Shown: positions 920 through 35,998 of the stretch, piece after piece
How the letters are laid out: every line of letters starts with the position of its first letter
How positions within the stretch are numbered: position 1 is the first letter of the stretch
Assembly: GCA_032718475.1 (NCBI GenBank)
Contig: JAUCBJ010000198.1
Coordinates: 1-50,208, forward strand
From: Nemertoderma westbladi
Lineage: Eukaryota > Animalia > Xenacoelomorpha
DNA: 50,208 nucleotides
Reading direction: 5' to 3'
Program-made: the position numbers and the translations under genes
Notes under the pieces: model-generated
The model's database searches: none
Told to the model about the DNA's origin: nothing
What the model saw: only the letters and a program-made list of their open reading frames with translations

Positions 920-1453
920 TGTGACGGGATCTACGGATCCCGGTTTATCCGTTGGGTTTTCTATCCACGCGTCCCCGCCGTGTGTGAAAGGTAAAAGAGT
1001 TCTGGTGTTCGGTTATATGTATAAGGTATAATAGTCTGATATATGATATAGTATAGTATGACACAACAGGTAATATAAGTATGATGGCGGTAGCGGACGG
1101 TGACAGAAGTCCCCGTTCCACCCTACTGATCTGACTGAGTAAACTGAATGAATGATTACAGGTTACTGGTTATATTGCACGGTGGCCTTATTGCTACTCA
1201 ATCGATGCCTTTCCCCCCTCTGATTGGTTGATACCCTTGTTGGCACCCTTTGGAGTGTTTCCCGTTCACTCCCTGCTGTTCTCTCTCGGTTAGGGGTTTG
1301 GCCCCTGACCCTTATTGTGTGTGTCTCCTTTGGGGCCTATTGTCCCCGTTTACTGGGCTGACACGAGGTTGATTGGTAATCAACCTCGTGCTCCCAATAT
1401 TGCTTTATGGCTCACTCTATGGGTTTGTGTTAGCGGAATTGGATAAGCTAACA
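920..1453 (-). repeat. 3' LTR of element 1
   Basis: tgtgacggga...gctaaca, near-identical to 7345-7878 with a few substitutions and indels. Confidence 0.95.
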
Positions 1454-2039
1454 CTCCCCCCCATGCTATCTTCCCGGTGAGAAGATAGCATCCAACTAAA
1501 GTGCGCTACAATTCCGCTGGATCCCGATCTAGCATCGGGTGTGGGGTGGGTATATTTTTTCGGAGTCGGCTTTCCAGGCCGCTCCCTATGGGTATGATAT
1601 TGCTACCCTCTGGCGTTTCGTGTCGGGCCGATCGTGCGCTTCTCTCACACAATTTTTGTTTCCCCAACACTCTCACCACTCTACTCCAACTCTCGCATAC
1701 TCCCGGACCTCCTCGTCCCACACTCTTCCTCTCACTTCTCCTCCCCCACACTTGAATTGCGCCCACGCTCTCTTCGCACTCCGCACTATTACTCCATCCC
1801 TCCTTGACTACCTTATCCCTTCTGACGAATCTCACCCCCCCTCCGTGCCGTCGCACTCAGGAAATGTGAAATCGTCTGGCGTCTTGTCCCTAGTGCCATA
1901 GTCACTTAGCCCCCCAGTCCCAGTAGCTAATTGAGAAAGGTTGTATGACTATAGTACTTACACCACTATCTCCGCACCCGCACTATCACCTCTCCACTCT
2001 CTTGTCACTCCCTAAGGCTTTAATCTCTAATGCTACCCC

Positions 2040-3370
2040 TGTGCTATCATACTATCTACCTACTGCTTACTAACTCTAACTATCTAACTAACTCTGCTAA
2101 CTACTAACTCTTACTACTTCTAGCTCTAACTGAGAGCCTCTAACTTTCTACTGACTCTAACTCTCTACTAAGTCTAACTAACTCCTACTAACTTTCTACT
2201 TCTACTAACTCTACTTGACTCCTCTGAGTCTACCAACTCTGCTAACTAGCTCTACTAACTCTACTCCACTAGCTCTGCTAACTCTACTCCACTAGCTCTG
2301 CTAACTCTACTAACTAGCTCTACTAACTCTACTCCACTCTTCTAACTACGTGGCGCTTGCGGTGCCCACAACCACTCTACTATCTGGCACCCTATGTGCC
2401 CTTCTACTACTCAACTACCTCTCTAGCTCTACTACCTGGCACCCTATGTGCCCTCTCTGCTCTACTCTACTACCTGGCACCCTATGTGCCCTCTCTACTA
2501 CCTCTAACTCTCTAACTCTACTACCTGGCACCCTATGTGCCCTCTCTACTACTCTCTACTCTCTACTCTACTACCTGGCACCCTATGTGCCCTCTCTACC
2601 ACTCCTCTACTCCCCCTTTACGTCCATCGCCTACACGTGACGCTCTGAATGCCGGCAGAGTGGGTACGTTAATTATGTGAACTACTACTAACTCTAACTA
2701 ACTCTACTAACTCTCTACGTGGCGCTAACGGTGCCCACAACCACAACCGGTACTACGTACCCTCTTACTAACTCTACCTCTATCTACGTGGCGCTAACGG
2801 TGCCCACAACCACAACCGGTACTACGTACCCTCTTACTAACCTCTAACTCCCACTAACTCTAATTAACATACCCTGCTCTTACATCAAACACATCATCAC
2901 GCCCGTGCCCCACTAAGTTCAGCCCATTCCCTACTAACTCTAACTACGTGGCGCTTACGGTGCCCACAACCCTCTACTGCTACTACTTTCTATGTGGCGC
3001 TTACGGTGCCCACAACCATTCTACTACTAACTCTACTCTAACTAGCGGTACTACGTACCCTCTAACTCTTACTCTAACTATCGGTACTACGTACCCTCTA
3101 ACTCTAACTACCTAGCGGTACTTACGTACCCTCTAACTCTAACTAACTAGCGGTACTTACGTACCCTCTAACTCTCTTCTACTAACGGTACTACACGTAC
3201 TCTCCTACTAACTCTTCTACTAACGGTACTACACGTAGCCTCCTACTAACTCTTCTACTAACGGTACTACGTACCACCCTTTAACTAACTCTTCTACTAA
3301 CGGTACTACACGTACCCTCTTCTAACTAACTAACTAACTAACTAACTCTTACTACCTAACTTCTACCTAC
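2040..3370. repeat. Low-complexity modular repeat tract in the 3' region of element 1
   Basis: ctaact/ctact-rich background with recurring modules (gtggcgct..cggtgcccacaacc, cctggcaccctatgtgccct, cggtactacgtaccctct). Confidence 0.85.
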
Positions 3371-3392
3371 TCTATTATTTAATTATTTTTAA

Positions 3393-5498
3393 TTAAATAA
3401 TTATTTTATATTTTGTGCGTGGGAAGGGCGTCTCGCCCTCATTCCCACCCCCCTCAGTCCAAAACTTTGGACGACTAAAAACTCTCAGGTGCCCCTTCTT
3501 CCAGTAGGCACTCTCCTGCTGCCCTCCTATACGTCCTCTAACTCTTCGCCGCACTCTCTTCGGTGCCACCTTTGCTGGCCTCCCCCTTCGTGTGTGCGCT
3601 GGCATTAGAGCCCTCGACGACCCCCGCTCGTCCCTCGGTATACGCGGTGTCTGCTCATGTAATGCCCCCTCGCACTGTGTCCGTCCTGCGTGTGTATGCA
3701 ACACGCCTCCTTCTACTTTCCCGACTCCCTTATGTTTGCTAATGGGCTTCTCTGCCCCTGGTTTAGTCCTTTCATATCCTCTCTCTTTCCAACACTCTCC
3801 GGATCTGTGTCCTTTTACCACACATCGATGACATAGTCCGTTTGCGTCTGTGTAGGCTACACGATCTCGTTTGGGCAACGCTTGCCAGTACTTGCAACTC
3901 CTGGTCTTATGGGTTCCGTCCCGATGTAATTGACATTGGAATCCTGGATTATAGCGTTTCCTGTATAGTCCTTCACGTATCGCGCTTAGGTTTATATGTA
4001 CCGATTTAATGTTTCGATTGTCTAGACTCGGCCTACTGGGTATATTGGGATTGTGTTTATTATATATGGTGTTATTTTCTTTCTGTCCCTGCCACGGTGT
4101 GGCCCTGCTACCAGCTAACTGTGGACTAGCAGTCCCCTGTACGGCCGCGTGTGGTATTGACTGTCCGCACGACCTGTTCTCGTCCAAGGGGTTCGATGTT
4201 CTCGCTCCTATTGGGGTATATTGTCGATATTGTGATGGGGGAATGTCACCCTGTCCCCCCCCGGCCGGTATGTTTGGTACTGGGGTTGATGTTAATACAT
4301 TGGGGCCCATACGTCTATCTCCAATAACTCCCCCCTCCCCTGGATATATGTTATGTCCCTGTGTATTATAGTCATGCTGCTGTACCGATATAGGCCTACC
4401 TACCTCTCGCCTACCTACCGGTATGTACTCCGCGACTTCCGGGTTTAATCCCGTCATTCGCGCTACCCCATCGCCTACTCTATCTCTCCCAGCATGGCCT
4501 ATAATAGTATGTGCAGTAAGGCCTACAGTATGTCCTGCAGTCTGCATGTGCCCTTCCGAACCGAAGTTTATTCTTCGCGAATCTCGAATCTCCCCGCGAC
4601 TACTGCACTCTCGATCGGCAGCTATATCCCGTCGGGAAGCTTCTCTTCGATCCCCTATCCTGCTCTCGTCTTCGTATCGGTACGTCCTGTACCCCTCTCT
4701 TGGCGTGCGGTGCGTTTCTCCGGGGCGACGGCAATCTCCCGAAGTTCGACCCCACTGGCTCCCTGACTCCATCTCTACTGTCGACGGTCCGTTATCCGTC
4801 CTCGCACTGCTATCGTTCGTGGCGACACTTCTTCTACTATCTTCTCTTCTTCTCTTTTCTGTGTAGTATTCCGGCTCGTGAGGTCTCTCGTCGACCTCCC
4901 GGTTAAACTCCACTGTTCTTCTTCCCTCTTCTGATCGGGCTCGACGCTTCGTCTGCCCTCTCGCGACGTCAACCTGCCTCTCTCTGCTCGATCGCACGCC
5001 GCTGGGGATACTCGCAATCCCCTTATTACTCTCCGTCGCCGGGTGTTGCGGTTTACCTGATTCGGCCCGCGCATTATCCGCTGACGGCTGTGGGACACTC
5101 TCTGCCCCCCCTCTCTCTCTACTAATCTCTCGCGGTGGGGTGCCCGTAGCCCCCCCCCACCCGCCACTTCTAACTTCACTATTTCTTACTATACTTCTAC
5201 ACCCCTCTTGTGGGGCATTCTCTGCCCCCCCTCTTTCGCCACTAATCTTATTTGGTGGGGCGCCCGTAGCCCCCCCCCCCCACTCGCCACATCTAACTTC
5301 ACTATCTCTTACTTCGTCTCTACACCCCTCTCTAGTCGACGCACTGTCTTTACTACGGCTGGGTCTATTCACCCCCGCCTCTCTCTCTACTACTGCGTGG
5401 CCCACCAGGCCCACTTCGGGTTGGCTCAACCCCGCTACCTCCTGCCTACCAACTTCGTGGCCTACCAGGCCGCCATCGGGTTGGCTCAACCCTGCCAC
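3393..5498 (-). CDS. Gag-like ORF2 of element 1 with CCHC zinc knuckles
   Basis: 701-aa open frame. CQLHRDGTHKTRSC...LCHRCVVKGHRSGEC matches the BEL/Pao Gag knuckle arrangement. No ATG at the annotated start; lies in the -1 frame relative to ORF1. Confidence 0.7.
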   Translation of the reverse strand: MAGLSQPDGGLVGHEVGRQEVAGLSQPEVGLVGHAVVEREAGVNRPSRSKDSASTREGCRDEVRDSEVRCGEWGGGATGAPPNKISGERGGAENAPQEGCRSIVRNSEVRSGGWGGATGTPPREISRERGGAESVPQPSADNARAESGKPQHPATESNKGIASIPSGVRSSRERQVDVARGQTKRRARSEEGRRTVEFNREVDERPHEPEYYTEKRRREDSRRSVATNDSSARTDNGPSTVEMESGSQWGRTSGDCRRPGETHRTPREGYRTYRYEDESRIGDRREASRRDIAADRECSSRGEIRDSRRINFGSEGHMQTAGHTVGLTAHTIIGHAGRDRVGDGVARMTGLNPEVAEYIPVGRREVGRPISVQQHDYNTQGHNIYPGEGGVIGDRRMGPNVLTSTPVPNIPAGGGQGDIPPSQYRQYTPIGARTSNPLDENRSCGQSIPHAAVQGTASPQLAGSRATPWQGQKENNTIYNKHNPNIPSRPSLDNRNIKSVHINLSAIREGLYRKRYNPGFQCQLHRDGTHKTRSCKYWQALPKRDRVAYTDANGLCHRCVVKGHRSGECWKERGYERTKPGAEKPISKHKGVGKVEGGVLHTHAGRTQCEGALHEQTPRIPRDERGSSRALMPAHTRRGRPAKVAPKRVRRRVRGRIGGQQESAYWKKGHLRVFSRPKFWTEGGGNEGETPFPRTKYKIII

Positions 5499-7255
5499 CT
5501 CCTGCCTACCAAGTACGGACGTACATAGCCCGGCAGACGGGGGTCTGCCGGGCTATGTACGTCCGACACGCTCATATTAATAGCACCATTCCCAATATTA
5601 TTTGTTAAATCAATTAAATTATTAGAATTTGAAACGAGATTTAAATTAATTAAATTAGAGTTATTATTATTTTCAAAATTTAAATTGCTATTCGAATTAT
5701 TTGAATTATTTTGATTATTCCGAATATTTGAATTAATATTATTATTTGAATTTAAACTTAAATTACTACTACCGGGTAAAATATTATTTGCTGCAATAAA
5801 GGGATTAGGATTATCTACTACGGTACTATTAATGTTAACATTTCCTAACGTACTACTACTACCCCCCCCGCCCGTACGGCTACACCAGTTCTGGTTCTCC
5901 CGCCCGGTGTCTGTAAGTGGGGTCTCACCCTCCGACAGCTCCAACCGCGCCAGTTCTAGTCGGCGCTGATTCAGTTTGGCTTGATGTTGCATAATCCCCC
6001 TTAGTAGGGCATGCAAATCATCCCGCCTGCGCTTACACTCTATCCCTCTCTGTCGCATATTCTGCTCGGCCAACTCTGCCTCTCTCGCAATCATCTCAAG
6101 CCGCCTCGCCGGCTCGCTCTCTACTCCCATCTCTCGCTCTCTACACTCCTTGGCTCTCTCTCTAAACTCCTCGGCTTTCTCTCTATACTCCCTTTCCGAC
6201 TCTCCTAACTCCTCTGAGAATGCGGTTTCCTCTCTCAATTGTCTCTCTAACCCATTCTGCTCTGTCGCAACCATTTCTAATTTATACGCCATGCGTTCAC
6301 TCTCTCGCACCCGTCTTTCTTTTGCGGAGGATGTAGCAGACTTATCGGTTGCGACGGACTCCCGCCGCTCCTCCGTCCTACTAACTTTCCCCCGCCTCCC
6401 GGAACTTCCTCCGACCGACGAGACCGAATCCTCGGAGTTAACCTCGGATTCGCCCTCCCGCGGTCTCCTCCAACCCACTAATTTTACTCCCCGGGCATCG
6501 ACTAAGTATGGCCCTATGTACACTACATTAGGCTGCATACCCCTACACTCCCATAGTTCAACCAGTTCGTTGATAACTCCCCTCGCCCTCTCCTCGGCTA
6601 GTTCTCTCTGCCCAAAACGCATTAGGTAATCAAAGTGTCTATTCGACTCACCTAGTCGTTTCCTCAATCTCACCTCATCTATCTTCGCCCTTCCTTTGGC
6701 CTCTCTCAGTTGCTTCCGGGTCGCGAGGTAGGCTCGTCGGAGCCGGTCGCCGACTCCGACGTCCTCGTCGCCGACATCTCCTCTATCCTTCCATGTCCGG
6801 AGTCGTACCGTCGGCCCCACCGTCGCCCCTCCGGTGGACCGTTCGTCGTCCTCGGCCTGTGGCTGGCCGGCGACATCGGTACCGACATCTCCCTCATCTC
6901 TCCGGGTCCGGCGTTGTACCGGCGGCCCCACCGTCGCCGTTCCGGTGGACCGTCCGTCGTCCTCGGTCTGTGGCTGACCGGTGACATCGGTATGTCGACC
7001 CTCGCTCCGCGTCGACTCGTCTTTCTCTTCTCCTCCCTTCTCGTCTCCTTCCCTCGACTCGCTCTCCGGTTGTAGACGACCCCCCACATCTTGGTTCGCC
7101 GGGTTGCTCGTTATCGACGTGGCGTCAACCTGCGTCGACGTGGTCGGCGTAGCATCGACCGGCGTCGTGGGTTCGTATCGTCTCGCCGTGGCCTCGCGGA
7201 TCGTTAGATCGTCGTCTGGGGTCCGCGGCGGTGTCGTTCCTCTATCTCGACTCAT
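5486..7255 (-). CDS. ORF1 of element 1: coiled-coil/disordered, probable Gag N-terminal part
   Basis: 589 aa from an ATG ~90 nt after the 5' LTR. E/R-rich helical segment, 120-bp internal duplication, Asn-rich tract. Confidence 0.65.
   Translation of the reverse strand: MSRDRGTTPPRTPDDDLTIREATARRYEPTTPVDATPTTSTQVDATSITSNPANQDVGGRLQPESESREGDEKGGEEKDESTRSEGRHTDVTGQPQTEDDGRSTGTATVGPPVQRRTRRDEGDVGTDVAGQPQAEDDERSTGGATVGPTVRLRTWKDRGDVGDEDVGVGDRLRRAYLATRKQLREAKGRAKIDEVRLRKRLGESNRHFDYLMRFGQRELAEERARGVINELVELWECRGMQPNVVYIGPYLVDARGVKLVGWRRPREGESEVNSEDSVSSVGGSSGRRGKVSRTEERRESVATDKSATSSAKERRVRESERMAYKLEMVATEQNGLERQLREETAFSEELGESEREYREKAEEFRERAKECREREMGVESEPARRLEMIAREAELAEQNMRQRGIECKRRRDDLHALLRGIMQHQAKLNQRRLELARLELSEGETPLTDTGRENQNWCSRTGGGGSSSTLGNVNINSTVVDNPNPFIAANNILPGSSNLSLNSNNNINSNIRNNQNNSNNSNSNLNFENNNNSNLINLNLVSNSNNLIDLTNNIGNGAINMSVSDVHSPADPRLPGYVRPYLVGRRWQG
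5516..5565. other. Perfect 23-bp hairpin at the ORF1/ORF2 junction
   Basis: cggacgtacatagcccggcagac-gggg-gtctgccgggctatgtacgtccg. Confidence 0.95.
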
Positions 7256-7333
7256 CTTCGTCTTTAGAGGCTGGTCGTCGCTAGCTAGGACGGTAGCTCT
7301 ATTCTATCTCTGTCAGGGCAGCTGGGCGGATCT

Positions 7334-7344
7334 AGTTCTGTCAC
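7334..7344 (-). promoter_or_regulatory. Non-tRNA primer-binding site of element 1 (putative self-priming)
   Basis: Sense GTGACAGAACT directly after the LTR CA; complementary at 10/11 positions to sense ACTTCTGTCAC inside the LTR (7527-7537, 1100-1110). Confidence 0.6.
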
Positions 7345-7878
7345 TGTGACGGGATCTACGGATCCCGGTTTATCCGTTGGGTTTTCTATCCACGCGTCCC
7401 CACCGTGTGTGAAAGGTAAAAGAGTTCTGGTGTTCGGTTATATGTATAAGGTATAATAGTCTGATATATAGATATAGATATAGTATGACACAACAGGTAA
7501 TATAAGTATGATGGCGGTAGCGGACGGTGACAGAAGTCCCCGTTCCACCCTACTGATCTGACTGAGTAAACTGAATGAATGATTACAGGTTACTGGTTAT
7601 ATTGCACGGTGGCCTTATTGCTACTCAATCGATGCCTTTCCCCCCTCTGATTGGTTGATATCCCTGTTGGCACCCTTTGGAGTGTTTCCCTTCACTCCCT
7701 GTGTTCTCTCTCGGTTAGGGGTTTGGCCCCTGACCCTTATTGTGCGTGTCTCCTTTGGGGCCTATTGTCCCCGTTTACTGGGCTGACACGAGGTTGATTG
7801 GTAATCAACCTCGTGCTCCCAATATTGCTTTATGGCTCACTCTATGGGTTTGTGTTAGCGGAATTGGATAAGCTAACA
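7345..7878 (-). repeat. 5' LTR of element 1
   Basis: Direct repeat of 920-1453. Sense strand has CCAATCAGAG (~7646-7655), AATATAA (~7597-7603) and TCAGT Inr-like motifs (~7561-7575). Confidence 0.95.
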
Positions 7879-12885: not shown

Positions 12886-12975
12886 ACAATGGTACCGCTG
12901 GTAATCGCTTACCGAATTATCTCTAATTTATTATATAAACAAACTACAGTAGAGCCATCTGTATCAACATTCAAC

Positions 12976-15522: not shown

Positions 15523-15523
15523 A

Positions 15524-16235: not shown

Positions 16236-16355
16236 CAGTAGTGGCGGTTCTAGGGGGGGGGGGGGGGGGGGATAGAATACTGGTGGTTCCAAGTTTACCC
16301 CCCCCCCCCCCCCAAAAAAAAAAAAAATACTAGCAAAATCCTAGAACCGCCCCTG
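16236..16355. mobile_element. Small hAT-like MITE with G/C homopolymers
   Basis: Ends cagt..ggcggttctag / ctagaaccgcccctg; 8-bp TSD tggccgcc/tggcctcc (7/8); paralog ~42632-42742. Confidence 0.7.
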
Positions 16356-17093: not shown

Positions 17094-18277
17094 ATATGCA
17101 TTGCCTGTTTTGTCAAGTATATAAATATAACTTGCCTGTTTTGGCAAGTTTGTAAATATACCTTGCCTGTTTTGGCAAGTTTGTAAATATACCTTGCCTG
17201 TTTTGGCAAGTATATAAATATAACTTGCCTGTTTTGGCAAGTTTGTAAGTATACCTTGCCTGTTGCCTGTTTTGGCAAGTTTGTAAATATACCTTGCCTG
17301 TTTTGGCAAGTATATAAATATACCTTGCCTGTTTTGGCAAGTTTGTAAATATAACTTGCCTGTTTTGGCAAGTATATAAATATACCTTGCCTGTTTTGGC
17401 AAGTTTGTAAATATACCTTGCCTGTTTTGGCAAGTATGTAAATATTCCTTGGCTGTTTTGGCAAGTATATAAATATACCTTGCCTGTTTTGGCAAGTATA
17501 TAAATATACCTTGCCTGTTTTGGCAAGTATATAAATATACCTTGCCTGTTTTGGCAAGTTTGTAAATATACCTTGGCTGTTTTGGCAAGTTTGTAAATAT
17601 ACCTTGCCTGTTTTGGCAAGTATATAAATATACCTTGAGTGTTTTGGCAAGTATATAAATATACCTTGCCTGTTTTGGCAAGTTTGTAAATATACCTTGC
17701 CTGTTTTGGCAAGTATATAAATATACCTTGCCTGTTTTGGCAAGTTTGTAAATATACCTTGCCTGTTGCCTGTTTTGGCAAGTTTGTAAATATACCTTGC
17801 CTGTTTTGGCAAGTATATAAATATACCTTGCCTGTTTTGGCAAGTATATAAATATACCTTGCCTGTTTTGGCAAGTTTGTAAATATACCTTGCCTATTTT
17901 GGCAAGTATGTAAATATTCATTGGCTGTTTTGGCAAGTATATAAATATACCTTGCCTGTTTTGGCAAGTATGTAAATATTCCTTGCCTGTTTTGGCTAGT
18001 ATATAAATATACCTTGCCTGTTTTGGCAAGTTTGAAAATATACCTTGCCTGTTTTGGCAAGTATGTAAATATTCCTTGCCTGTTTTGGCTAGTATATAAA
18101 TATACCTTGCCTGTTTTGGCAAGTTTGTAAATATTCCTTGCCTGTTTTGGCTAGTATATAAATATACCTTGCCTGTTTTGGCAAGTTTGTAAATATACCT
18201 TGTATGTTTTGGCAAGTATATAAATACACCTTGCCTGTTTTGGCAAGTATATAAATATGCATTGCCTGTTCTGGTAA
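17094..18277. repeat. 31-bp minisatellite array 2
   Basis: About 38 units, uninterrupted. Confidence 0.95.
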
Positions 18278-18629
18278 GTATTTGAATTTGATAGAGTATA
18301 TTATAAATATGATGGAAACTTCCTGTAAGTTTCACGTGTAAGACAAATGTTGAATAAATTATAAAACAAAATATTATTTTATGGCTTTTCCCCTGGAGCA
18401 AAAAGAAGTAACGCAGGAGGAGTAAACGAAATGTAATATGTCCTCTACTTAAAGTAATTTAATTGCCGTACTACTGTAATGAGAATTTCAAGGATTTTTT
18501 GAGTCAAATTTTAATAATATGTGGCTGGCCACGAGAAAAGGGACCTTATGTCGCAAAACCTGATTCTGAGATAATCGCGTTTAAAGTCTCCCTCTATTTT
18601 TGAACAAATTTAATTGGATTGTCAATTTA

Positions 18630-21600
18630 CTACTACTACTACTACTACTAGGTCGAGCGAACTCGGACAGTGGAAATGAGATCCTTCCAGGCTTCCCGAT
18701 TCTCCATAGTTGTCGCAATTTCGTTTCTCCCAAGTTCAGTATCCCTTTCAAGTTGATCTATATATGTTATGGCCGGTCGTCCACGACTACGCTTTCCATG
18801 AGTTGGTTGCCAGAGAAGTAGATCTGGTATGACCTCGTCTTTACTTCGCCAGCAGTGCCCACTGAATCTTAATCTGCGTTCACGGAGGGTGGTTGATACA
18901 GGTGGTATTGTACCATAAAGCTCGGCGTTTGTCATGTGTTGTCTCCAGCTGATGTTTAGGGCTGCCCTTAGTAGTCTTGTGTAGCAACCATCTATTCGTT
19001 GTTCAAGTGATTTAGTCAGTGTCCAGGTCTCACCCCCGTATAAAAATAACTTTCCACTGTGGCTCGAAAGAACTTAGTCTTCAGGTGCCTGGAGAGATCT
19101 GATTTCCAGATGGTATCCATTTTTGATAGAGCTACCCAAGCCTTTGCTTTCCTAACTTCTATGTCCTTTTTGCTACTCTCTATCCATGATCCAAGGTACT
19201 GGAAGTCATCAACCTTCCTTAGTTGATCATTACCAATGGTTGTCAAGTTCCCATCAACATTAAAGGTCATGAATTCGGTCTTTGTAGAATTTATATGCAA
19301 TCCAACCTCCTTAGCAGCCCTCTCCACTTTATTTAGTAGAAGCTGTGCATCTGCTAGCGTATTAGAGAGCAGGGCGATGTCATCCGCAAAGTCGGTGTCT
19401 GTGACTGTAGTTGCCGGATATCTACTACTTCTGCGTTCTTGAAGTGTGAATCCCAGATCTTCACCCTTTGTGGCCGTCCTCATTGCGTAATCCAGCACAA
19501 TTACAAATAGTAATGGTGCTAATGTGTCACCTTGCAGTACGCCAGCCAGGATTGAGAAAAACTCAGTTTCACCATCTGGTGAGAGTACCTGCGCTTCTGT
19601 GTCACAATATAACATTCCAATGCCAGCAACAATTACTTCTGGTATTCCATAAGCTCTTAGGATTTCAAGAATTTTACCTCTATGGATGGAGTCGAATGTC
19701 TTCTTGAAGTCCACAAAAGTCATGACTGCGGGGAGATTCTTTGACTTAATTCCTTCAATCAGTCTTCGTAGTGCAAGTATCTGAGCTATTGTTGATCTAC
19801 TTGGTCGAAATCCGTTTTGGCTCTTACGCAGTAGTTTCTCTATGTGAGGCCTAATCCTATATAGAATCATTTTATTGTATATTTTGGCAGCTACCACAAG
19901 CAGACAGATCCCACAATAGTTTGTTGGTGATACCAAGACCATCTTCTATCAACTCCGTCATATCTGCTATATATGAGTTTATCCATATTATAATGAGTTT
20001 ATATTTAGGCGAGTGGGCGTCGCTGCCTACCCCAATCAACCCCCGGACAGTACGAGATCCTCAGCGCCGATGTGTCGTCGCCGCTGTACTTTCGCCAACG
20101 ACGTAGCCGCACAACGACAACGACAACCGGCACAAGTCACTCGACTGTCCGTCCCAAAGGCTTAGATGTACTTCAGGTTTTCCTTGGAGTTAGGTTACTT
20201 TTACGATTGCGACTAGCTACTGTAAACACACCTTAGCAGTAACATTCACCTATAAACTCACAAATACCACACACACAACTTGTCACAAATTACACACATT
20301 CGGGCCATTTGTCCGTTAGTCAATGCCTTCCGGAATGTCACTGTATTATTATGTATCCTTGGATACTAGTAGTGCGCTATTTATTCCCTATGCTATTCAA
20401 TGGGACAAGCGTTGTCAGAGTTTTGCCATGGCACATACTGTTTTCGTTTGGGTTTCTGGGAGATATGCCTCTTAGCTGATTCCTTGTGGGCTGTTATTAT
20501 ATTCTGGTATATTGAATCGGTGGATTGGTCTTCATCCATTGACTGAAGTGCTTCAAAGCGGTTTTGAACTTCTACTGTATAAGCATCCTTTACAGCATTG
20601 TCAGTTCTGAGTTTCTCCCAGTCATAGTTGACTTGCTTGCTTGTCCTGGGTTTGCTGGCTCTCAAACTGAGTCTTATCTCTGCAGTCACAATTCTGTGGT
20701 CCGAACCAATTAGGTTGAACGAGCTGTAGGCCTCGCAGTTGATCATGCTGTTTCTCCACTTTTTGTTTATAAGGATGTAATCCAGTTGTGCTTTGGTTCC
20801 ATTAGGGTATTGAAAGGTCCATAGCTTCCCCTTACTCTTTTCGAATGTGTTGTTTGTTGGTATCAATTCACATTCTTCCATTAGGTCTAAAAGTAAGTAC
20901 CCATTTCTGGTGTTATAGGTGTAACCCTTGATGTCTTCTGGGCCAATTTGCGCATTCAGGTCACCAGCAATGACTTTAACATTGTGTCTCGGTATGTCCT
21001 TTATAAGTCCAGTCAGTTCTTCATAAAACTTGACTGCTTGTTCTGGCTCTGATGCATTGGTTGGACTGTAGCAACATATAACTGTTGCCTTGGGATTCCC
21101 ATCAAATGTTGCGATCATAACCCTGGAATTTATAGATTCGATGTTGTTTAGGGTCTTAAGTGCAAATGCGCTTAGCAGAATTCCTACTCCACCAATTGAT
21201 GCAATGGCCGAGTTTCTTACTGCTGAGCTTGTTACTAACGTCCATCCATTTCCAATGTCATTGTACTTCATGGCAGTGTCTTCATGACAAATCCGATGTT
21301 CTTGGATGCAGATGATGTCGATGTTATAATCCATTGCCAGAGCGACCATGTCACCCTGTTTGGTATGTGCTTTCAGCGTGCGTGCGTTCATTGTAGCAAT
21401 CTTTAGTGTCTTTTTACATTTCAACAGGTTGGTTCTTCTTTCTTCGCTGTCTTCTGTTCCAGTAGCCAATTTATCGACCCCGGCCTGGTGTACCACTGAG
21501 GGACGCGGTCCTTGTTGACCCGGGCGACGACCGAGCCGGTATTTCTCCTGGAGGGTTCTCATACTCATATCTTTCAGTTGCGGGAGTAAACCGCTTGTGG

Positions 21601-22577: not shown

Positions 22578-23592
22578 ATAATGTTTTAGAATGTAAATTG
22601 CTTGTCATTTTGTTAATTCCTGTACGTTCTAGACACTTTCTAGAATATGCGTGGGACAAGGTGGACAAACATCTACAACACTCCCAATAATGAATTAAAA
22701 ATACGAATAATTTTAAGTTTTGTAAAAAAAATTTTTGAAAAAAATTAAAATTAAAAAAAAAAATTTTTTGGCTACATGTTTTTTTTTAATTTTGCAAAAT
22801 TTTTTTTTAAATAATTCATTAACAATATTAATAGTTTCAAAGTGTTAAAAGCTGTATAAAAAGCCGAATAACAACATTGAGCTGCCTAACTATATAGTAA
22901 GAATTGCTATGATGTTATTAATATTTTCAATTTTTTTAAATAACAAAATTATTTTGAAAAGAGCTACCCGATTCACCTTCACATAAATCGCTATAACTTT
23001 TTTTTGGAAATAGATATTGAGATCCCGTTTTTTTGTTAAAATCTCTGGAAAATTCTACATCTCATAGGCCTAATAACTCAAAATCGACATCCGGTGACAT
23101 AAGGACCCTTTTCTCGTGGCCACCCACATATCTCGAAACAGGAAATGTCTACAAGGTAGGTCTACATCCTAAATTTGCATAGAGGATAAAACAAGCAGGA
23201 AACGAGCTGTATCAACAAATCAGGCTGATAATATAACAAGTATTATCAAGTCAAGTCAAGTTTGTCAAGTCAAGTGATGTCAATTCAGTATGTCAAGTCG
23301 TATGGCGCCAAGTCAAACTACTATCAAGTCACGTGATGTCAATCAAGGCATTAATTATTAAGTGATGTCGAGTCCAATGATGTCAAGTCAAGTGTCATAA
23401 AACCAAATGATATCAAGTCAAATAATTTCAATTGATAAAAAGTCAAGTGATGTCATTTATCATTATGATAAATGACCATGATGTCTGTCACGGTTTTCTA
23501 ATTATTGAAATTGCTTCCGTCAATTCGTTTTACCCACTGCATCGTACCCATCTTGTGAAATTCCACAATAAGAGGCAGGCAAAGAATCGCAA

Positions 23593-23826
23593 GAACTCAA
23601 CAAAGATAACAGCCAGATGCCTGTCCTTCTTTTTTGATAATTCTTCAATTATCCTTATAAGTGCCAAAATGGGCTCCATGGTCCCACGACCTTTACGGAA
23701 CCCATTCTGATTTCCACGGAGCAGTCTCTCAATGGGATCCCTGATGCGATTTAATAGAATCCTATTGTATAGCTGTGCAGCAATCGAGATCAATGAGATT
23801 CCCCGAAAAGAACCATAGAGTGTTAG
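23593..23826 (-). pseudogene. RTE-type LINE A, copy 2, 3' piece
   Basis: Paralog of 9801-10034; separated from the rest by LTR element 2. Confidence 0.9.
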
Positions 23827-25038
23827 TGTAAAAGCTTTTGCTGAATTGTCCGGTTATTTTTCCTTATTTTTCCCGTAAAATACTCTGTAGTTGGTTTACC
23901 AGGCATAAAAGGGCCGTGTCCTTGCTGTACTGGTGTTTTAGCGGACATAAAAGCTATTTCTTCTGTATTTGTACTTTAGAGGACATAATCCGTAATTCCG
24001 TGACGTAAAAGCTCGATACTCTTGAAAACAGTGTCGCTACCATGACGACGGCTAGCAGCTGATATTGCCACGTCGACGTTTCTTTGTTTCTTTGTTCTCT
24101 CGTTGTTCAGGTTGACCAATCAGAGCGTTTGTTGTCTCTGTGTTGGAGGTGTATACAGAAACTCAGTAGTTCAGTGTTATGTTTTTGCCCAGAGCCTAAG
24201 AACCGGCTTTTGGCACCTCCGTGTTTTCAGTTTTTAGTCTTACACTAGTAGGCTTAATTATAAGGACATATATCCGTTATCTGCATACTGATGTCTGCAT
24301 ACTGCATACTGCATACTGCAGTACTGCATACACTGCATACTGTGTAACACTGTGCATACTTTTATATTGTTATACTGCTATTTACTGTCAGTTCTTCATA
24401 ATATGGTTGATGAATTATTATATTTGGAATAACGACAAATAACCCCGAAAACCCAATATTCTTGATATACCTAAGGTAAGAGAGAAAGGTTACAGATAAA
24501 TGATTGCGACCTATGTTGAGTGGTTTGAAGTGAATCTAATGTTATTTGATAGACCCTACATGATTCGGTCCGTGTTCCTTTTATATGTGACTAAAATCAG
24601 TGAAGATCGGCAGATCAGTGTGCAGTATTGTGCAGCATTGTGTATGAGTGAGACTGATAACGAAGCATTTCCTAAAGAATGCGCCATATATGTGAATTGT
24701 AACTAAGCCATATCGTTGTGAGTAGTTTAAGTCATAACTCTGTTTGTATAGATAGAGCGCCACGTCCTAAAGGAACTGTTAATATTTCCCGAAGGTGAAT
24801 AATATTGTCAGAGATTATATAATACTGTCAGTCGAATAATACATTAGGCTTACATAGCAAAAAAATTAAGCCGTCGAACCCAATCTCCCGGGTATATCCA
24901 GCGGGTGAATGATCGCGCACAGATTGGTTTCGACTAGTGTAGTGAATTAAATACTTGTCATAGACTAAAGGTGATTTATTATCTAGAAGACATCCTAATT
25001 TGGCGGGTTAAACTGCCAAAGGTCTAAAAGCGCGAACA
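23827..25038 (+). repeat. 5' LTR of element 2
   Basis: Direct repeat of 34787-35998; only two substitutions noticed by eye. Contains CCAATCAGAG, TCAGT motifs and ctgcata repeats. Confidence 0.97.
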
Positions 25039-25049
25039 ATAACGGATAT
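25039..25049 (+). promoter_or_regulatory. Non-tRNA primer-binding site of element 2 (putative self-priming)
   Basis: ATAACGGATAT directly after the LTR CA is the exact reverse complement of ATATCCGTTAT at 24270-24280 (and 35230-35240). Confidence 0.7.
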
Positions 25050-25344
25050 TGCTTCTTTATTGCAGTAAGCAATAAAGTCGAAAGTACCGGTCGACCGGTA
25101 ACCAGTAGGCCTGACTGCCTGATCATCCGGACCGGTACCTACAGCAGTATTTTTCGATTTTGATTATTATATACCAGTAGGCCTTAATAATTAATCAGGG
25201 ACTGCAGCCCTGGTTTTTTATTGAGATTTTTACTTATTTCTGTCAAGTTTTATTTATTTGTAGGCCAGTATTGAACAGAAGGCGTGTAAGCCTGATCATA
25301 TTGTACAGACAAGTTGTAGGCTGAGCTGTTGTCTGATTGCTGTT

Positions 25345-25880
25345 AAGTCTGAACGGATTGCAGTGTGTGTAGGTCACCTGTCCGATAAAGAACGGTTGGG
25401 AAGTAGGGGTAGCCATTGCTGTAAAGTAAACCCCCAATTAAAGAATAAGTCGTACTACTGGGTTAGAACGCATACTACCTAACTATTTCGGAGTCTGCAT
25501 GTCCTGTAGTTTATTTAGGCTTGAGAGTAGTCTGCCATCGTTTGGTCTGTACTTTGTTTGTGTAGTCTGTACAGGTAGCGTATAAAATTTATTTAGATAA
25601 TTTGTAGGCTGGATAGTTGTCTGGCTGTTATTAGGTCTGAACGGATTGCAGTGTGTGTAGACTGTAGAGCCCTTGTCCGATAAAGAACGGTTGGGAAGTA
25701 GGGGTAGCCATTGCTGTAAAGTAAACCCCCAATTAAAGAATAAGTCGTACTACTGGGTTAGAACGCATACTACCTAATCATTTCGGAGTCTGCATGTCCT
25801 GTAGTTTATTTAAGCTTGATAGTAGTCTGTCAGTATTTAGTCTGCATTTTGTTTGAGTGGTTTGTACGTGTAGCGTAATA
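25345..25880 (+). repeat. ~295-bp tandem duplication in the 5' leader of element 2
   Basis: gtctgaacggattgcagtgtgtgtag...tccgataaagaacggttgggaag occurs twice. Confidence 0.9.
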
Positions 25881-27331
25881 TTTATTATTCAGAGTTTATG
25901 CGATTATTCGCAACATTCATTCCCCAAGTTTGTTCCTACAATAATTGTGTTTGTTATACATACCGCTATAGTTAAATTAACCCCGGTACTACACGGGCTG
26001 CTTGGCGTAGGTAAAGACTGGTGATTTTGTGCACCGGTTACTCCAGCAGATGCCGTGGTTCTTTTAGCTGTTCAAGTATATTTAACTACTGATTATATGT
26101 TATACAAGTACTTGTACCTAATTTAGGGTTTAGTGTACAGTACTTTCCGAAAGTAATTAGTGTAGGCATTATATTTGTGTTGTAAAGTGGTTGATAGGCA
26201 CGTTCGATTAGCTCTATTAACTTCTAGGTAGGGACACTCCGTGATACATAACGTAGTACCTATAGCGATACGGCTATAGGTCGTCAGGCGGTGGTATTTT
26301 CCTATCTGGACAACGCAGTGTATTTACTACTACGTATTATTTTCAAATACCGCAGTACCCTGTCCGTTGTAATAACCAGAATTCTAACCCTTTGTTAGGC
26401 TGGTTTGTAGACTTCTTGTAAAATTACCCTAAAAATTCGTATTTTGTGTTTTTTGTAAATTTTTATGTTTATTTAGAGATTGTAATCTCACCCGAATTGT
26501 ACGTAATTTGTAGTATTAAGTAACTTAGGTAAATTAGAATTATTTGTTTTAGTGTCCTATAAGTAACACTTCACTGAAAGCGCACCGCTTTGTGTAGTGA
26601 TTACTCCCCAGAAATAATAACATTTATTTCAAACATCGACAAAACCCATTAAAACGGGTATATATATATTATAAATCAACTCAAACGATTTATAAATAGT
26701 AGGCCTACCATATAACAATTAGGTCTCAATATCAGTTGGACTACTGCTTAACTAACGGCAATAAAGTAAGTTAAAGTAACCAAGTAACCCTTGAAATTCA
26801 GAAATTCAGTTATTTAAAATAATTGATATACCGGTATTTACAGTAGGCTTATTATATTTATTTCTATAAATTTTAGGTTGAAATCATACCGGTATTCTGT
26901 AATTAATTCTAGTTTGTAATTATACTTATATATATACACTATAAGTGTAAACTGCATACCGGTATTTACGATAGGTCTATTATCTTTATTTCTATAAATT
27001 TAGGCTGAAATTATACCGGTACTTGTAATTAATTCTAGTCCAGAATTATATATACTACAAACTGTAAGCTGTATACCAGTATTTCCGTTAGGCCTATTAT
27101 ATATTTATATATATTTGTGCTAAAATTATATGCCGGTTTCTGTAAAAAACCTAGTCTGTAATAATACTTATATATACTATAAGCATACCGGTATTCTAAT
27201 ATATTATATATATATCACGCTACACTGAGTAGCAGTATCGGTAATTAATTACTAGGCTAGCAGTTAATGCTGAATTACTAGACTTGCTTAGACTGTAATA
27301 TAGCAGTAGGCATTCAACTGTACAATCAAAC

Positions 27332-30300
27332 ATGTCTGACTCACCACAAACATTGTCAGATAGCCTCTTAGAAAGTGCTAGAATGAGTGTTAGACAGGGT
27401 CTTAAAAAGATCTGGGACTCAGCTAAGAGTATAGAGCGTCTGAGATCAAAGTCCAAGTCCCCTCCTACTGTAAGCAAGGCCATCCCTACAGTATTAATAA
27501 CAGAACCGAGGCTGGTCCAACATCGTAGGTCTATCATAGGCACTCGACCTCAAGTCAAGCGAGACCAAGAAGCAGCGGAACAGCAACAACCCGCGAGCCA
27601 GGAACTTGTTTCTCAGCGGTCCGACAGCTCCAGTAGTTCGGATACTGTTGAGCGGACGCCCGAGCGCGGAGCGAAGATGGCGGATAAGGTTTATGATGAG
27701 TGGACAACCTATGAAGAATCAACCGACGCCACTTCTTCTCAAGAAGAAAGCGAAGCGACGGCAGAGAAACAGCATAAGAGGGATGCCATTGACATCTATC
27801 TGTCAGACTATCAACGTTTTTTAGGTGATGACGAGTTGAGGAGAAGGTTAGAGGGACTTAGCCCTAATAGTGAAGGAACCAAGCTTGTGTTGGATGCCAT
27901 CGATGCGGAAATGTTAGCGGCGAACCAAGCTAAATTCGATGAACAACTCCGCATCGCTAGAGAACAAGAAGAACAAGTAAAGAAAAAACGTATAGAAGAT
28001 AGAAAGACAGCGGCAGTGGCAGCAGCAGTGGCAGCGGCAGAAGCCGAAAGAAAAGCGGCACTGGCAATAGCAGAGGCAGCGGCAGAAACCGAAAGAAAAG
28101 CGGCACTGGCAAAAGCAGAGGCAGCGGCAGAAACCGAAAGAAAAGCGGCACTGGCAATAGCAGAGGCAGTGGTAGAAGCAGAACGGAGGGCATCTGAAGA
28201 GGCAACCCAACTAGAGTTGGAAATTCTTCAAGAGAAGCAAGACAACTTCAATAAACAGTTAACAGCGAGCAATATGCAGATGATGAGTCGATCTACTCCC
28301 AAGAGACAGGGGTATACATCATCTGAGGAAGGCGATACCACCGACACTGAAGGCGGAGGAAATCGATCTCGCCTAAGCAGACGTAAAAGAACATTCCACC
28401 GTCAGAAATTGCCTGATTTGCCTCCAGCTGTTAGAAGGCAACTAAATAACACCAAAGTAGGTAGTACAGAACCCACAGACCAAATAATTACAATAGAGAG
28501 ACTCCCTACTATAGTAGATGAGCCTGAAATAATTAGGCCTGTTCCCGAAGCTACCCTTTCGGTCGTAGAGACACCTGTACTCCCTGAACCTACTTCTCAA
28601 TTCCCTTTGCACAGCACTAAGCTACCTGTGCCCAGCAGAACAGTCCATGAGACAGTGCATACCCTGGACTCCGAGCGAAATATTACAGATTTGTCGCCCG
28701 TTGTCCCTCGTCCGCCCGCTACAACGTTGGCGACTCCCGCTTCGGCGGTCGAATGGGTGGACGAGAGACGACGGGGGATGGATCTCCTGCTCGGGCAGAT
28801 GCAGGAGACTGTCCAACAATTCAAGGGCACAGTAAGGGAAAGTAGACTAGAGTTGCAAGAAGTGCAGCAAAATATCGCGCTAGAACGTGATAAATTAGTA
28901 AATTTACAAAAGGGTATACCACCACCCCTTGTAACAATGTGTCAACCTGTTAGGTCTGAAGCATCTCATGCGCAAGGTGTGGAGCCTACCCGCATCTATA
29001 CTGCTAGCGAAGTAGAAACTCCTATAGTGAACCCTATTAAGGGTAATTATAAACCTGTTGATAATGATATTCCCTATAGACCGGATCATAATCCGAGAAA
29101 TTTATATACCGATAACTCGATATTAAATAACACGATGGCCCAAGAAAGTTTTACGCGTCAAATGGCTAGAACCGAAGCCCGGCAAGCGGTAAAGGTGGGA
29201 GAGATCGTCAAGTTCAATGGAGATGAGATGAAATGGTTACCTTTTAATGAATATTACAAAGATAACATACAGAACTTTGTACTATCTAATGGAGAAAAAC
29301 TTAGATACCTCATCGAGTGCTTGGAAGGATCTCCCAAGTTAATGGTGTTAAAATTTATTGGACATCCAGATGGATTAAGACAAGTTTGGGATACACTAAA
29401 CATCAGGTATGGTAATAGGACTAACATAGCTAGGTATTTATATGCGAAATTAATGGCGCCCCGAAAGTTTCTTAGCAGCGGGATTATAGAGTTTTCCGAC
29501 GAGATTCAGGAGATCTGTAGACAACTAGATTGGTTAGGTAAGTCTCATGAATACCAGAATTCTATGGTTGTAGGAGCCCTAGCATCTACTTTGCCCAAGG
29601 GTGGAGTAGGTACACGCTGGGACAAGAAAGTGTTATATATGATGGAACAACAACGACGAGACCCTACCATGGCTGATCTCATGTCATTCTTAGATAGAGA
29701 AGTGAAATTACAGCTCCTAAGGCAGTCCAGAGAGAAGACACTGGAAAACAAGGTAAGTGAGAAACCCGTTTCTAGGAGAAGGGTAACACCAGTGTGTTAT
29801 ACAGACGACGGCGAAAGCCAGACTTCTCAAGGAGAGGATAGCGGGAAAGACACTGAGAGATCTTACTACGACAACAAAACGCCTAAAGACCAGGTAAGTA
29901 AATTCAAGTCTCGACCCAATGACAGAAGGGAACCGGTACAAAAAACCCCTCCTACGTCTCCTAAAAGAATTCAGGTGAGAAAGCCCGAGGAAAGAACAAG
30001 TGTGCACCACATAGCACAGGTTAAAGTAAGTAACATCAAGCCGAAATGTGTGCTGTGCGACGGGCCCCACCGTTTAAATGCGTGTGATAAATTCCTGGGG
30101 AAATCACTAAAGGATAGACGTGAAGTCATGTGGGATAAGCGGTTGTGTTATAATTGCCTCAGACGAGGACACCAACGGCGAACCTGTTACTCCGACGCAA
30201 GGTGTGCAAAGTGCGGCGCAAAACATCATATCTTGTTGCATACGGAATTCGAACGAAACAGCCCGAGTCAGGTAAGTGAGTCCGAACTACATGTCCAATT

Positions 30301-31831
30301 CAGTGATGTGAACGACACTGATCAATCTGAGATGGAAGGATTCTATACGGACGAATTCTCCGACCAAAGTTCTGAAATGGAAGGATTCTATACGGACGAA
30401 TTCTCCGACCAAAACGAAACCTGTTACATAATAAACACCACCGCAGTGTATCGAGCACTCGTGCATGAGAAAGACACAGACAGCGACCTTACCTTAACTT
30501 CTCCCGATCAACAACCATCTTGGAAAGAGCCAACTTCCAATATAGGAATCCGAGAATTTCCTGTAGTCCAGTTACGGGTCCACGGACCTCAGAAGAGCTA
30601 TATAGTGAACGCCCTCCTGGACTCCGGCAGCACAGGAACATTCATCGATAAAGAACTAGCCGAAGACATCTTTGCTGGACAACCCAAGTTCCGAACCAAG
30701 CTAAACATGTCAGGGATCATGCAGGTTTGGAAATCTGCTGTGGCTGCCGACTATTATATAGGTGAGTTGTCCACTCCACAGGATAAACTAGGAGAACACA
30801 GTATAAGGTCAGTCAAAATGGTGGCAATAAAGAACTTCGCTACTACTCAAGCAGATCTTTATAATTGGGACGAGGATGAGAGCATCCAACATCTTAAGAT
30901 ACCTCGATTCCAGACTGATTATCCTGGAGTGCAAATACTCATCGGCCAAAACGCGCATGAGGCGCTGGAGACATTAGAGAAACGACCTACTCAACCGCAA
31001 CCACTTCAGACCTATGCGATAAGAACTAGAGTAGGTTGGTACCTTACTGGACCTTCCCGTAGAACGCTCAGGGAAAGACTGCTTCAAGATCGCGTCTGCC
31101 AGGTGAGTGAATGGGAAGACGATACTAGTGAGGGAGACGACCCAACTGAGGGAACACCACACTCCTCAGATAATGACAATCTTAACTCCAATGTAGATCA
31201 ATGGAGATATTGCCCCAAGACGATGAATACAACTGACATCGCTTCCAGAGGAGCAACTCCTCAAGAACTGACAGATACTACAGACCGGTTAGGTGAACCC
31301 GACTTCCTGAGTAAGGAGGATGAATGGCCTCCCCATCTTACTCCGACTGAGATTAGACCAGCCAAGGGAGCGGAGAAAGTCAAACCAAAAACCCGGACGG
31401 GTGGAGCGGAGTTATTTGAACCCGGGATAGATCTGTCGGTATTACATATTGCCAGGGACGACGCCGTGGATCTGGACCTCCCCACCGCGAGTGGATCCTT
31501 CATGAAGATCAAAGAGAGCGATTGGAGCTCTGGAACATCAGACGTCTCGCAGGGACTCTCACCTCTCCTGCAGGGAGCGACGGACCACTATAGCTCCTGG
31601 AATCGGCTTTGTAAGGCCGTCGTGTACCTAGAGCGATGTTTCTATCGTCACTATTCCAGGACGAAGAGGAAACCTGGAACTGTATTCGGGATGCAGCGAC
31701 TCAATCACCCAGTCGGTCGTTTGTGTTTACCGGAAGGGAATAGAGGACTCTCCGGAAACTGTGGAAGGCAAGATTCTCTTCCCACGACCACCTCCCTAAT
31801 CCTTCAAACATCTAGGGACTCCATAACGTAA
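27332..31831 (+). CDS. BEL/Pao Gag-protease polyprotein (1499 aa) lacking RT, most of RNase H, and integrase
   Basis: DUF1759-like Gag (KFNGDEMKW...KLRYLIECLEG...LNIRYG); three knuckles (CVLCDGPHRLNAC, CYNCLRRGHQRRTC, CAKCGAKHHILLH); protease ALLDSGS; pol remnants QWRYCP...DIASRG and YSSWNRL; no YxDD-type RT motif. Confidence 0.92.
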   Translation: MSDSPQTLSDSLLESARMSVRQGLKKIWDSAKSIERLRSKSKSPPTVSKAIPTVLITEPRLVQHRRSIIGTRPQVKRDQEAAEQQQPASQELVSQRSDSSSSSDTVERTPERGAKMADKVYDEWTTYEESTDATSSQEESEATAEKQHKRDAIDIYLSDYQRFLGDDELRRRLEGLSPNSEGTKLVLDAIDAEMLAANQAKFDEQLRIAREQEEQVKKKRIEDRKTAAVAAAVAAAEAERKAALAIAEAAAETERKAALAKAEAAAETERKAALAIAEAVVEAERRASEEATQLELEILQEKQDNFNKQLTASNMQMMSRSTPKRQGYTSSEEGDTTDTEGGGNRSRLSRRKRTFHRQKLPDLPPAVRRQLNNTKVGSTEPTDQIITIERLPTIVDEPEIIRPVPEATLSVVETPVLPEPTSQFPLHSTKLPVPSRTVHETVHTLDSERNITDLSPVVPRPPATTLATPASAVEWVDERRRGMDLLLGQMQETVQQFKGTVRESRLELQEVQQNIALERDKLVNLQKGIPPPLVTMCQPVRSEASHAQGVEPTRIYTASEVETPIVNPIKGNYKPVDNDIPYRPDHNPRNLYTDNSILNNTMAQESFTRQMARTEARQAVKVGEIVKFNGDEMKWLPFNEYYKDNIQNFVLSNGEKLRYLIECLEGSPKLMVLKFIGHPDGLRQVWDTLNIRYGNRTNIARYLYAKLMAPRKFLSSGIIEFSDEIQEICRQLDWLGKSHEYQNSMVVGALASTLPKGGVGTRWDKKVLYMMEQQRRDPTMADLMSFLDREVKLQLLRQSREKTLENKVSEKPVSRRRVTPVCYTDDGESQTSQGEDSGKDTERSYYDNKTPKDQVSKFKSRPNDRREPVQKTPPTSPKRIQVRKPEERTSVHHIAQVKVSNIKPKCVLCDGPHRLNACDKFLGKSLKDRREVMWDKRLCYNCLRRGHQRRTCYSDARCAKCGAKHHILLHTEFERNSPSQVSESELHVQFSDVNDTDQSEMEGFYTDEFSDQSSEMEGFYTDEFSDQNETCYIINTTAVYRALVHEKDTDSDLTLTSPDQQPSWKEPTSNIGIREFPVVQLRVHGPQKSYIVNALLDSGSTGTFIDKELAEDIFAGQPKFRTKLNMSGIMQVWKSAVAADYYIGELSTPQDKLGEHSIRSVKMVAIKNFATTQADLYNWDEDESIQHLKIPRFQTDYPGVQILIGQNAHEALETLEKRPTQPQPLQTYAIRTRVGWYLTGPSRRTLRERLLQDRVCQVSEWEDDTSEGDDPTEGTPHSSDNDNLNSNVDQWRYCPKTMNTTDIASRGATPQELTDTTDRLGEPDFLSKEDEWPPHLTPTEIRPAKGAEKVKPKTRTGGAELFEPGIDLSVLHIARDDAVDLDLPTASGSFMKIKESDWSSGTSDVSQGLSPLLQGATDHYSSWNRLCKAVVYLERCFYRHYSRTKRKPGTVFGMQRLNHPVGRLCLPEGNRGLSGNCGRQDSLPTTTSLILQTSRDSIT

Positions 31832-34729: not shown

Positions 34730-34786
34730 TTTAGAAACTGTGATTTTTATATTTTATAGACTGAAAATCCCATTTTCTGGGAGCGG

Positions 34787-35998
34787 TGTAAAAGCTTTTG
34801 CTGAATTGTCCGGTTATTTTTCCTTATTTTTCCCGTAAAATACTCTGTAGTTGGTTTACCAGGCATAAAAGGGCCGTGTCCTTGCTGTACTGGTGTTTTA
34901 GCGGACATAAAAGCTATTTCTTCTGTATTTGTACTTTAGAGGACATAATCCGTAATTCCGTGACGTAAAAGCTCGATACTCTTGAAAACAGTGTCGCTAC
35001 CATGACGACGGCTAGCAGCTGATATTGCCACGTCGACGTTTCTTTGTTTCTTTGTTCTCTCGTTGTTCAGGTTGACCAATCAGAGCGTTTGTTGTCTCTG
35101 TGTTGGAGGTGTATACAGAAACTCAGTAGTTCAGTGTTATGTTTTTGCCCAGAGCCTAAGAACCGGCTTTTGGCACCTCCGTGTTTTCAGTTTTTAGTCT
35201 TACACTAGTAGGCTTAATTATAAGGACATATATCCGTTATCTGCATACTGATGTCTGCATACTGCATACTGCATACTGCAGTACTGCATACACTGCATAC
35301 TGTGTAACACTGTGCATACTTTTATATTGTTATACTGCTATTTACTGTCAGTTCTTCATAATATGGTTGATGAATTATTATATTTGGAATAACGACAAAT
35401 AACCCCGAAAACCCAATATTCTTGATATACCTAAGATAAGAGAGAAAGGTTACAGATAAATGATTGCGACCTATGTTGAGTGGTTTGAAGTGAATCTAAT
35501 GTTATTTGATAGACCCTACATGATTCGGTCCGTGTTCCTTTTATATGTGACTAAAATCAGTGAAGATCGGCAGATCAGTGTGCAGTATTGTGCAGCATTG
35601 TGTATGAGTGAGACTGATAACGAAGCATTTCCTAAAGAATGCGCCATATATGTGAATTGTAACTAAGCCATATCGTTGTGAGTAGTTTAAGTCATAACTC
35701 TGTTTGTATAGATAGAGCGCCACGTCCTAAAGGAACTGTTAATATTTCCCGAAGGTGAATAATATTGTCAGAGATTATATAATACTGTCAGTCGAATAAT
35801 ACATTAGGCTTACATAGCAATAAAATTAAGCCGTCGAACCCAATCTCCCGGGTATATCCAGCGGGTGAATGATCGCGCACAGATTGGTTTCGACTAGTGT
35901 AGTGAATTAAATACTTGTCATAGACTAAAGGTGATTTATTATCTAGAAGACATCCTAATTTGGCGGGTTAAACTGCCAAAGGTCTAAAAGCGCGAACA
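34787..35998 (+). repeat. 3' LTR of element 2
   Basis: tgtaaaagc...cgcgaaca. Confidence 0.97.

Follow-up and report, generated by a model that had tools for sequence, protein, structure and literature searches.

How does a retrotransposon of the BEL/Pao type start its minus-strand DNA when the sequence behind its 5' LTR resembles no tRNA-directed PBS? This question is raised by a locus of Nemertoderma westbladi, for which we analyzed a window of 50,208 nt (the whole of the examined stretch of contig JAUCBJ010000198.1). The region is animal-like and repeat-rich, and it harbors a 12,172-bp (12.2 kb) LTR retrotransposon at positions 23827-35998, referred to here as the main element. An unrelated BEL-like element is present in the same window, and the features of both are collected in Table 1.

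The two LTRs of the main element differ at only two positions (24476 and 24861), and the site into which it inserted can also be seen in its empty state. In the paralogous LINE copy, GTTAG occurs once (10030-10034), and loose contig ends matching this empty site were present in runs X1, X4, and X5 (described below). To place the element, we compared it with a BEL profile made from 31 proteins of 1650-2060 amino acids, which were taken out of 155 relatives fetched. Its 1510-codon frame matches this profile over Gag and protease (E 2.3e-83) and contains DUF1759 (PF03564; E 4.4e-13), but behind the protease the match jumps from profile position 678 to 1223 (about 545 positions). As judged by the BEL profile, which matched none of the remaining frames, the main element possesses neither RT nor integrase and lacks most of RNase H. 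All five proteins listed in a search for relatives contained PF05380, PF03564, and PF18701; the protein relatives share only 24-38% identity with the element and are known as proteins without their DNA. DNA relatives were found by LTR-end pattern neither in metagenome contigs nor in viral contigs, and protein queries confirmed none in viral contigs (out of 1 and out of 19 stretches) and none in metagenome contigs (out of 15). A reading of the bare sequence that preceded our study, referred to here as the sequence-only reading, had assigned the element to BEL/Pao; DUF1759, the protease and the profile matches agree with this assignment. The BEL/Pao traits found are a BEL-type Gag (DUF1759, triple zinc knuckle) with protease, TG...CA LTR ends, and a short (5 bp) target site duplication; the placement rests on Gag and protease, RT and integrase being absent from this copy. 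The Tf1/sushi lineage, with its Ty3/gypsy chromovirus pol, is ruled out by the BEL-type proteins. The main element is a young, non-autonomous member of BEL/Pao. Two short open frames (33401-33727 and 34371-34838) are found in the 3 kb that separate gag-pro from the 3' LTR; neither matches the BEL profile, and the latter has no Pfam match.

Table 1. Features of the main element and of the second BEL-like element, in window coordinates.
Feature	Position	Strand	Remarks
Target site duplication GTTAG, 5 bp	23822..23826	+	second copy at 35999-36003
5' LTR	23827..25038	+	1212 bp, TG...CA ends
Promoter-like motifs	24116..24231	+	CCAAT 24116; Inr-like TCAGT 24163, 24171, 24227
Candidate self-primer	24269..24280	+	24270-24280 pairs with the PBS in the window copy
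Poly(A)-signal hexamer position	24859..24864	+	AATAAA in the 3' LTR (35819) and in most family depth
Predicted 8-bp U5 hairpin	24999..25020	+	18 nt upstream of the PBS; free of variants listed for X1, X3
PBS position	25039..25050	+	flush with LTR end; no TGG; at least 3 letter types in the family
Predicted 9-bp hairpin	25055..25077	+	directly behind the PBS
Single 1510-codon frame	27299..31831	+	BEL gag (DUF1759, zinc knuckles), protease, post-RNase H region
Candidate PPT	34779..34786	+	short purine-rich tract directly before the 3' LTR
3' LTR	34787..35998	+	second 11-mer copy at 35230-35240
Second, unrelated BEL-like LTR element	920..7878	-	LTRs 7345-7878 and 920-1453; TSD GCCTG
Second element PBS position	7336..7344	-	9 nt, exactly complementary to LTR bases 344-352 (window 7527-7535); no gap to the LTR end

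The surroundings of the main element contain a block of about 9 kb (LINE, a 528-codon DUF7164 frame, and a 31-bp satellite) twice, at 9086-18575 and at 22887-23826 plus 35999-44577, with 95-99% identity; the main element interrupts only the second copy. Pieces of its family lie elsewhere in the window. A 480-bp segment of the 3' region (19929-20408, corresponding to 32978-33456, 98% identical) sits inside a LINE, with the endonuclease frame on one side and the RT frame on the other, and a target duplication is not evident there. The last 43 bases of the family LTR stand alone in the LINE copy (10152-10194, minus strand); this piece begins just before the U5 hairpin and is flanked by a 5-bp duplication, ACCTC, of which the paralogous site near 36119-36123 has just one copy. 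It is the product either of a very short cDNA that integrated aberrantly or of a deletion in a solo LTR that began almost exactly at the first base.

The first 11 internal bases of the main element (25039-25049) are the exact complement of LTR positions 24270-24280, with no spacing to the LTR end, and within the window the complement of this 11-mer occurs only at 24270 and at the equivalent place of the 3' LTR (35230). The first TGG of the internal region stands at 25211, 172 bases in. We found an 11-nt complement at offset 0 in two of 5000 dinucleotide shuffles of the LTR and at offsets 0-5 in eight of 5000; among 9718 internal positions, four have an LTR complement of at least 11 nt, the PBS being counted among them. 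The sequence-only reading had described this 11-nt match with the same coordinates, noted that a TGG-type tRNA PBS is missing behind the 5' LTR, and put the chance of the match at about 3e-4. Our analysis reproduces the first two observations, and the shuffles bear out that the match is improbable by chance.

Other sources of a primer were considered. A tRNA 3' end is ruled out by the missing TGG. Half-tRNA primers derive from an anticodon loop with the pattern YU-NNN-R, and such a primer is ruled out for the main element, whose PBS complement lacks this pattern. A search with bacterial settings detected no tRNA genes in the window, and an Rfam search over 23800-36000 gave two weak matches far under the gathering score, which we take as chance. 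No GT-AG join within the LTR of either element yields a complement longer than 8 nt; because no such join improves the match, a primer built by splicing need not be invoked.

To assess variation in the family, we aligned assembled contigs from four of seven listed runs to the LTR. Two of these are deep DNA runs (X1 and X3), and two are shallow (X4 and X5; X5 may, at a guess, be RNA). The family is abundant, with 14676 contigs aligned in X1 and 3093 in X3. LTR-side variants were drawn from 40 of 195 substitutions, among which those of the PBS did not figure; PBS-side variants were taken from the same runs over 24985-25125, with all 11 substitutions at hand. Expressed as summed contig depth, which is a crude measure, two changes in the LTR 11-mer stand out among the substitutions listed: 24276 G>T (36% in X1, 38% in X3) and 24280 T>A (39 and 46%). 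Their expected PBS partners, 25043 C>A and 25039 A>T, were written down before the PBS-side data were examined. Both are present in the two deep runs, the former with 22% of depth in X1 (32 contigs) and 40% in X3 (11 contigs), the latter with 26% (44 contigs) and 29% (21 contigs). X1 and X3 consequently hold two reciprocal pairs: 24276 G>T is matched by 25043 C>A, and 24280 T>A by 25039 A>T. The chance of finding both named partner changes is about 0.012 given a variable PBS and about 8e-4 at the LTR-wide rate. A further PBS-side change, 25050 T>A (86% in X1, 78% in X3), adds a twelfth pair with 24269 T in the family copies that carry it; this extension is absent from the window copy.

The shallow runs did not follow the forecast. 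X4 carries both LTR changes on its single 11-mer contig, yet the depth for the two PBS changes was 0 of 383.9 and 0 of 20.9; X5 has neither LTR change on its single contig, but both PBS changes are present and share one contig. Sharing of a contig, for the PBS changes in X5 as for the LTR changes in X4, was judged from equal depth and matching contig-end distances. Each of these misses rests on one or two contigs, and the deepest PBS-side contig of X4 fits only from 25051. A third PBS type, with 25044 G>A (18% in X1, 14% in X3) and 25046 A>T (8% in both), would lose two pairs if 24275 and 24273 did not change as well; neither change is among the 40 of 195 LTR substitutions listed, and this type may be a counter-example. 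Yet another PBS type, with one extra base, is suggested in X1 by a loose end made up of 11 contigs. No contig carries both LTR and PBS variants, which are separated by 760 nt and hence unphased, and the two reciprocal changes may reflect one subfamily split rather than two events. The compensatory covariation that the sequence-only reading had named as a check is therefore seen as two reciprocal changes in X1 and X3, with variants that are unphased, whereas the forecasts missed in X4 and X5.

In X1 and X3, four of the seven variable sites within 141 nt fall in the 11-nt PBS (hypergeometric 6.5e-4); for a 12-base PBS, a window picked afterwards, the figure is five of seven (3.5e-5). The PBS is thus more variable in the family than its flanks, and the stems of both predicted flanking hairpins are free of listed substitutions. 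Around the hairpin behind the PBS, the listed substitutions and insertions lie in the loop or outside, except that a single X5 contig of shallow depth has a gap of one base at 25056. A PBS recopied from a host tRNA should, by inference, be the least variable part.

We also looked at the probable ends of the transcript. The CCAAT and Inr-like motifs reported in the sequence-only reading are present in the LTR (Table 1); in both elements, we presume that such motifs mark promoters. The TCAGT at 24227 precedes the candidate primer by 43 nt and the others by about 100 nt, and from these motifs transcription may start 40-100 nt upstream of the 11-mer. A TATAA at 24259 was set aside because it matches a TATA box poorly and stands just 11 nt ahead of the segment. 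The 5' LTR hexamer is one letter off AATAAA, and the candidate primer, which precedes AATAAA by about 590 nt, would lie in R or at the U3/R border. CTGCATA-type short tandem repeats follow the candidate primer directly (24281-24350); they show partial complementarity to another stretch of the LTR (24610-24660) and are swapped for other letters in some family contigs. A strong splice-donor-like motif is found at 24473-24481 in the 5' LTR, upstream of the PBS, and is altered in the 3' LTR; if used for splicing, it would yield a translated RNA devoid of the PBS. The leader downstream of the PBS measures 2.3 kb, and the stretch from 24270 to the start of gag contains 20 ATGs.

Folding of 24270-25130 yields the PBS/LTR duplex in both the minimum-energy and the centroid structure. 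Of 16 combinations of start and end, three (starts 24260-24270, end 25130) give it a probability near 1, and the remaining 13 do not exceed 0.03, values to be read with the unreliability of equilibrium folding over 900 nt in mind. Folding would weakly favor a primer at the RNA 5' end, contrary to the promoter motifs. Flanking duplexes of the Tf1 type (the pretzel) were not detected, since in all six tests the best duplexes were matched by 65 to 108 of 200 shuffles.

The second BEL-like element has LTRs of 534 bp. Its zinc-knuckle region matches the BEL profile (E 5.7e-8), and its two long low-complexity frames (605 and 719 codons) have no Pfam match; it is non-autonomous. No TGG occurs in the first 258 bases of its internal region. 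A flush 9-nt complement such as the one at its PBS was obtained in six of 5000 shuffles, and the PBS complement contains one YU-NNN-R pattern. CCAAT, TATAA, and TCAGT stand at LTR positions 225, 278, and 305; read as promoter motifs, they would place the start site about 40 nt before the primer segment. The predicted duplex has a probability of 0.75 if the RNA starts at the segment and of less than 0.1 for four upstream starts.

What was observed in the main element and its family is the lack of a TGG, a flush complement of 11-12 nt, and reciprocal changes among family contigs; the second element has the flush self-complementarity as well. We consider it probable that this BEL/Pao family primes its minus-strand DNA from its own RNA, in the manner of Tf1, instead of from a host tRNA. 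The LTR segment 24269/70-24280 of the transcript would anneal to the PBS, and a cut after 24280, by analogy with Tf1 made by the RNase H of a helper element's RT, would free a 3'-OH. Since the main element copy has no RT, an RT supplied in trans would copy from 25038 back to 24281 and then jump to the 3' R; the strand transfer would pass through an R region reaching the AATAAA about 590 nt on (35819 in the 3' LTR). Plus-strand synthesis would recopy the primer into the PBS, which would explain both that the PBS drifts alongside the LTR segment and that it varies more than its flanks. The self-priming proposed in the sequence-only reading is in this way supported by covariation, the missing TGG and the flush match, and priming itself is what we infer from them. 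The non-autonomous nature of both elements counts against it.

A primer of element sequence could instead act in trans, with neither a fold-back nor a cleavage in cis. It might be a short sense RNA made by any of the numerous LTR copies (an abortive transcript or a small-RNA product ending at 24280), or an LTR segment of a second packaged genome or of the RNA 3' repeat. Such a primer would suit the loss of the 760-nt fold-back in 13 of 16 folding settings, the missing pretzel duplexes, and the great abundance of the family in the DNA runs. A mixed pool would, however, tend to mismatch LTR and PBS types, whereas the main and the second element each match their own LTR, and we regard priming in trans as unlikely. 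Slightly less likely still is a duplex that is real and selected but structural (in packaging, dimer formation, or a translation switch), the primer being something else, for example an unrecognised host RNA fragment. Covariation demonstrates pairing and not priming, and long-range 5' pairings occur in tRNA-primed elements. Against a structural role, the pairing ends exactly at the minus-strand start point in two unrelated elements, no TGG occurs within 172 (main) and 258 (second) bases, the complement of the main element is without the YU-NNN-R pattern, and one host RNA could not fit three PBS types. That a defective element lost its tRNA PBS and that the variants merely coincide is very improbable: the main element is indeed internally deleted, windows were screened for oddities, so that a 4e-4 match could be selection, and the shallow-run forecasts failed, but near-identical LTRs and an intact target site duplication speak for recent copying with the current PBS, the forecast partner changes were found in two of four runs (both deep ones), and the second element is an independent 1e-3 event.

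Self-priming from the element's own RNA, the reading we prefer, has known counterparts. The primer of Tf1 consists of the 11 bases at its start, which RNase H cuts off (PMC7175516). Tf1 forms a three-duplex structure with the primer at the transcription start site (bioRxiv 10.1101/2022.12.06.519325), and retains the reverse-transcribed PBS in its cDNA (PMC11042837). The main element shares with Tf1/Tf2 of Schizosaccharomyces pombe, and with Tf1/sushi at large, an 11-nt LTR/PBS complement in place of the tRNA site (PMC7175516). Its PBS begins with ATAAC, as does that of Tf1 (PMC11042837); this may be coincidence, and one family type alters these letters. Tf1/sushi elements are Ty3/gypsy chromoviruses, whereas the main element is BEL/Pao and the pretzel was not found. 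In plants, Tcn1 (gypsy) and TAR (copia: Houba, Osr-1) are described as predicted self-primers with a complement of at least 10 bp located 0-5 bp past the 5' LTR (PMC6317226). By the same measure the main element, a metazoan BEL/Pao member unlike these plant gypsy and copia elements, has 11 nt at offset 0, and the second element, with 9 bp, is one short.

Belpaoviridae are described in the ICTV profile (PMC8742986) with a PBS of 18 nt that complements the 3' end of either tRNA-Arg or tRNA-Gly, and the BEL element Achilles has a tRNA-Tyr PBS (PMC4580426). The main element shares Gag DUF1759, zinc knuckles, protease, and TG...CA LTRs (1.2 kb here) with this family but has no PBS complementary to a host tRNA 3' end. 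The fungal copia element GalEa and bivalve TRIMs likewise have no tRNA site and carry a hairpin near the expected PBS (PMC5445492, PMC6934838). The authors of the GalEa study (PMC5445492) did not find an LTR complement, whereas the main element has a covarying one. In half-tRNA-primed elements (copia, Osser, Bianca, FunCo1) the PBS complements the anticodon stem-loop, a pattern that the main element lacks. In the literature searched, with supplements, Repbase and GyDB entries, and most subscription papers outside its scope, we found no report of a self-priming BEL/Pao element, and self-priming was described only for retrotransposon groups other than BEL/Pao. PBS or tRNA terms do not occur in the main text of the BEL surveys PMC3118150, PMC554778, PMC6238403, and PMC8556966.

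A more far-reaching scenario is possible, and we put it forward only tentatively. Self-priming may have arisen in the BEL/Pao lineages of this animal independently of Tf1; the primer would be cut inside R, 40-100 nt behind the cap, without a pretzel. The PBS would drift freely because it is recopied from the element's own primer in each cycle, and the elements would escape both silencing by tRNA fragments and their dependence on tRNA. An internal primer that needs no pretzel would imply a cleavage step different from that of Tf1. PBS-based annotation misses families with a self-complementary PBS. A covarying PBS of this kind in BEL/Pao would extend self-priming to a third LTR superfamily, and this extension would imply repeated loss of the tRNA primer.
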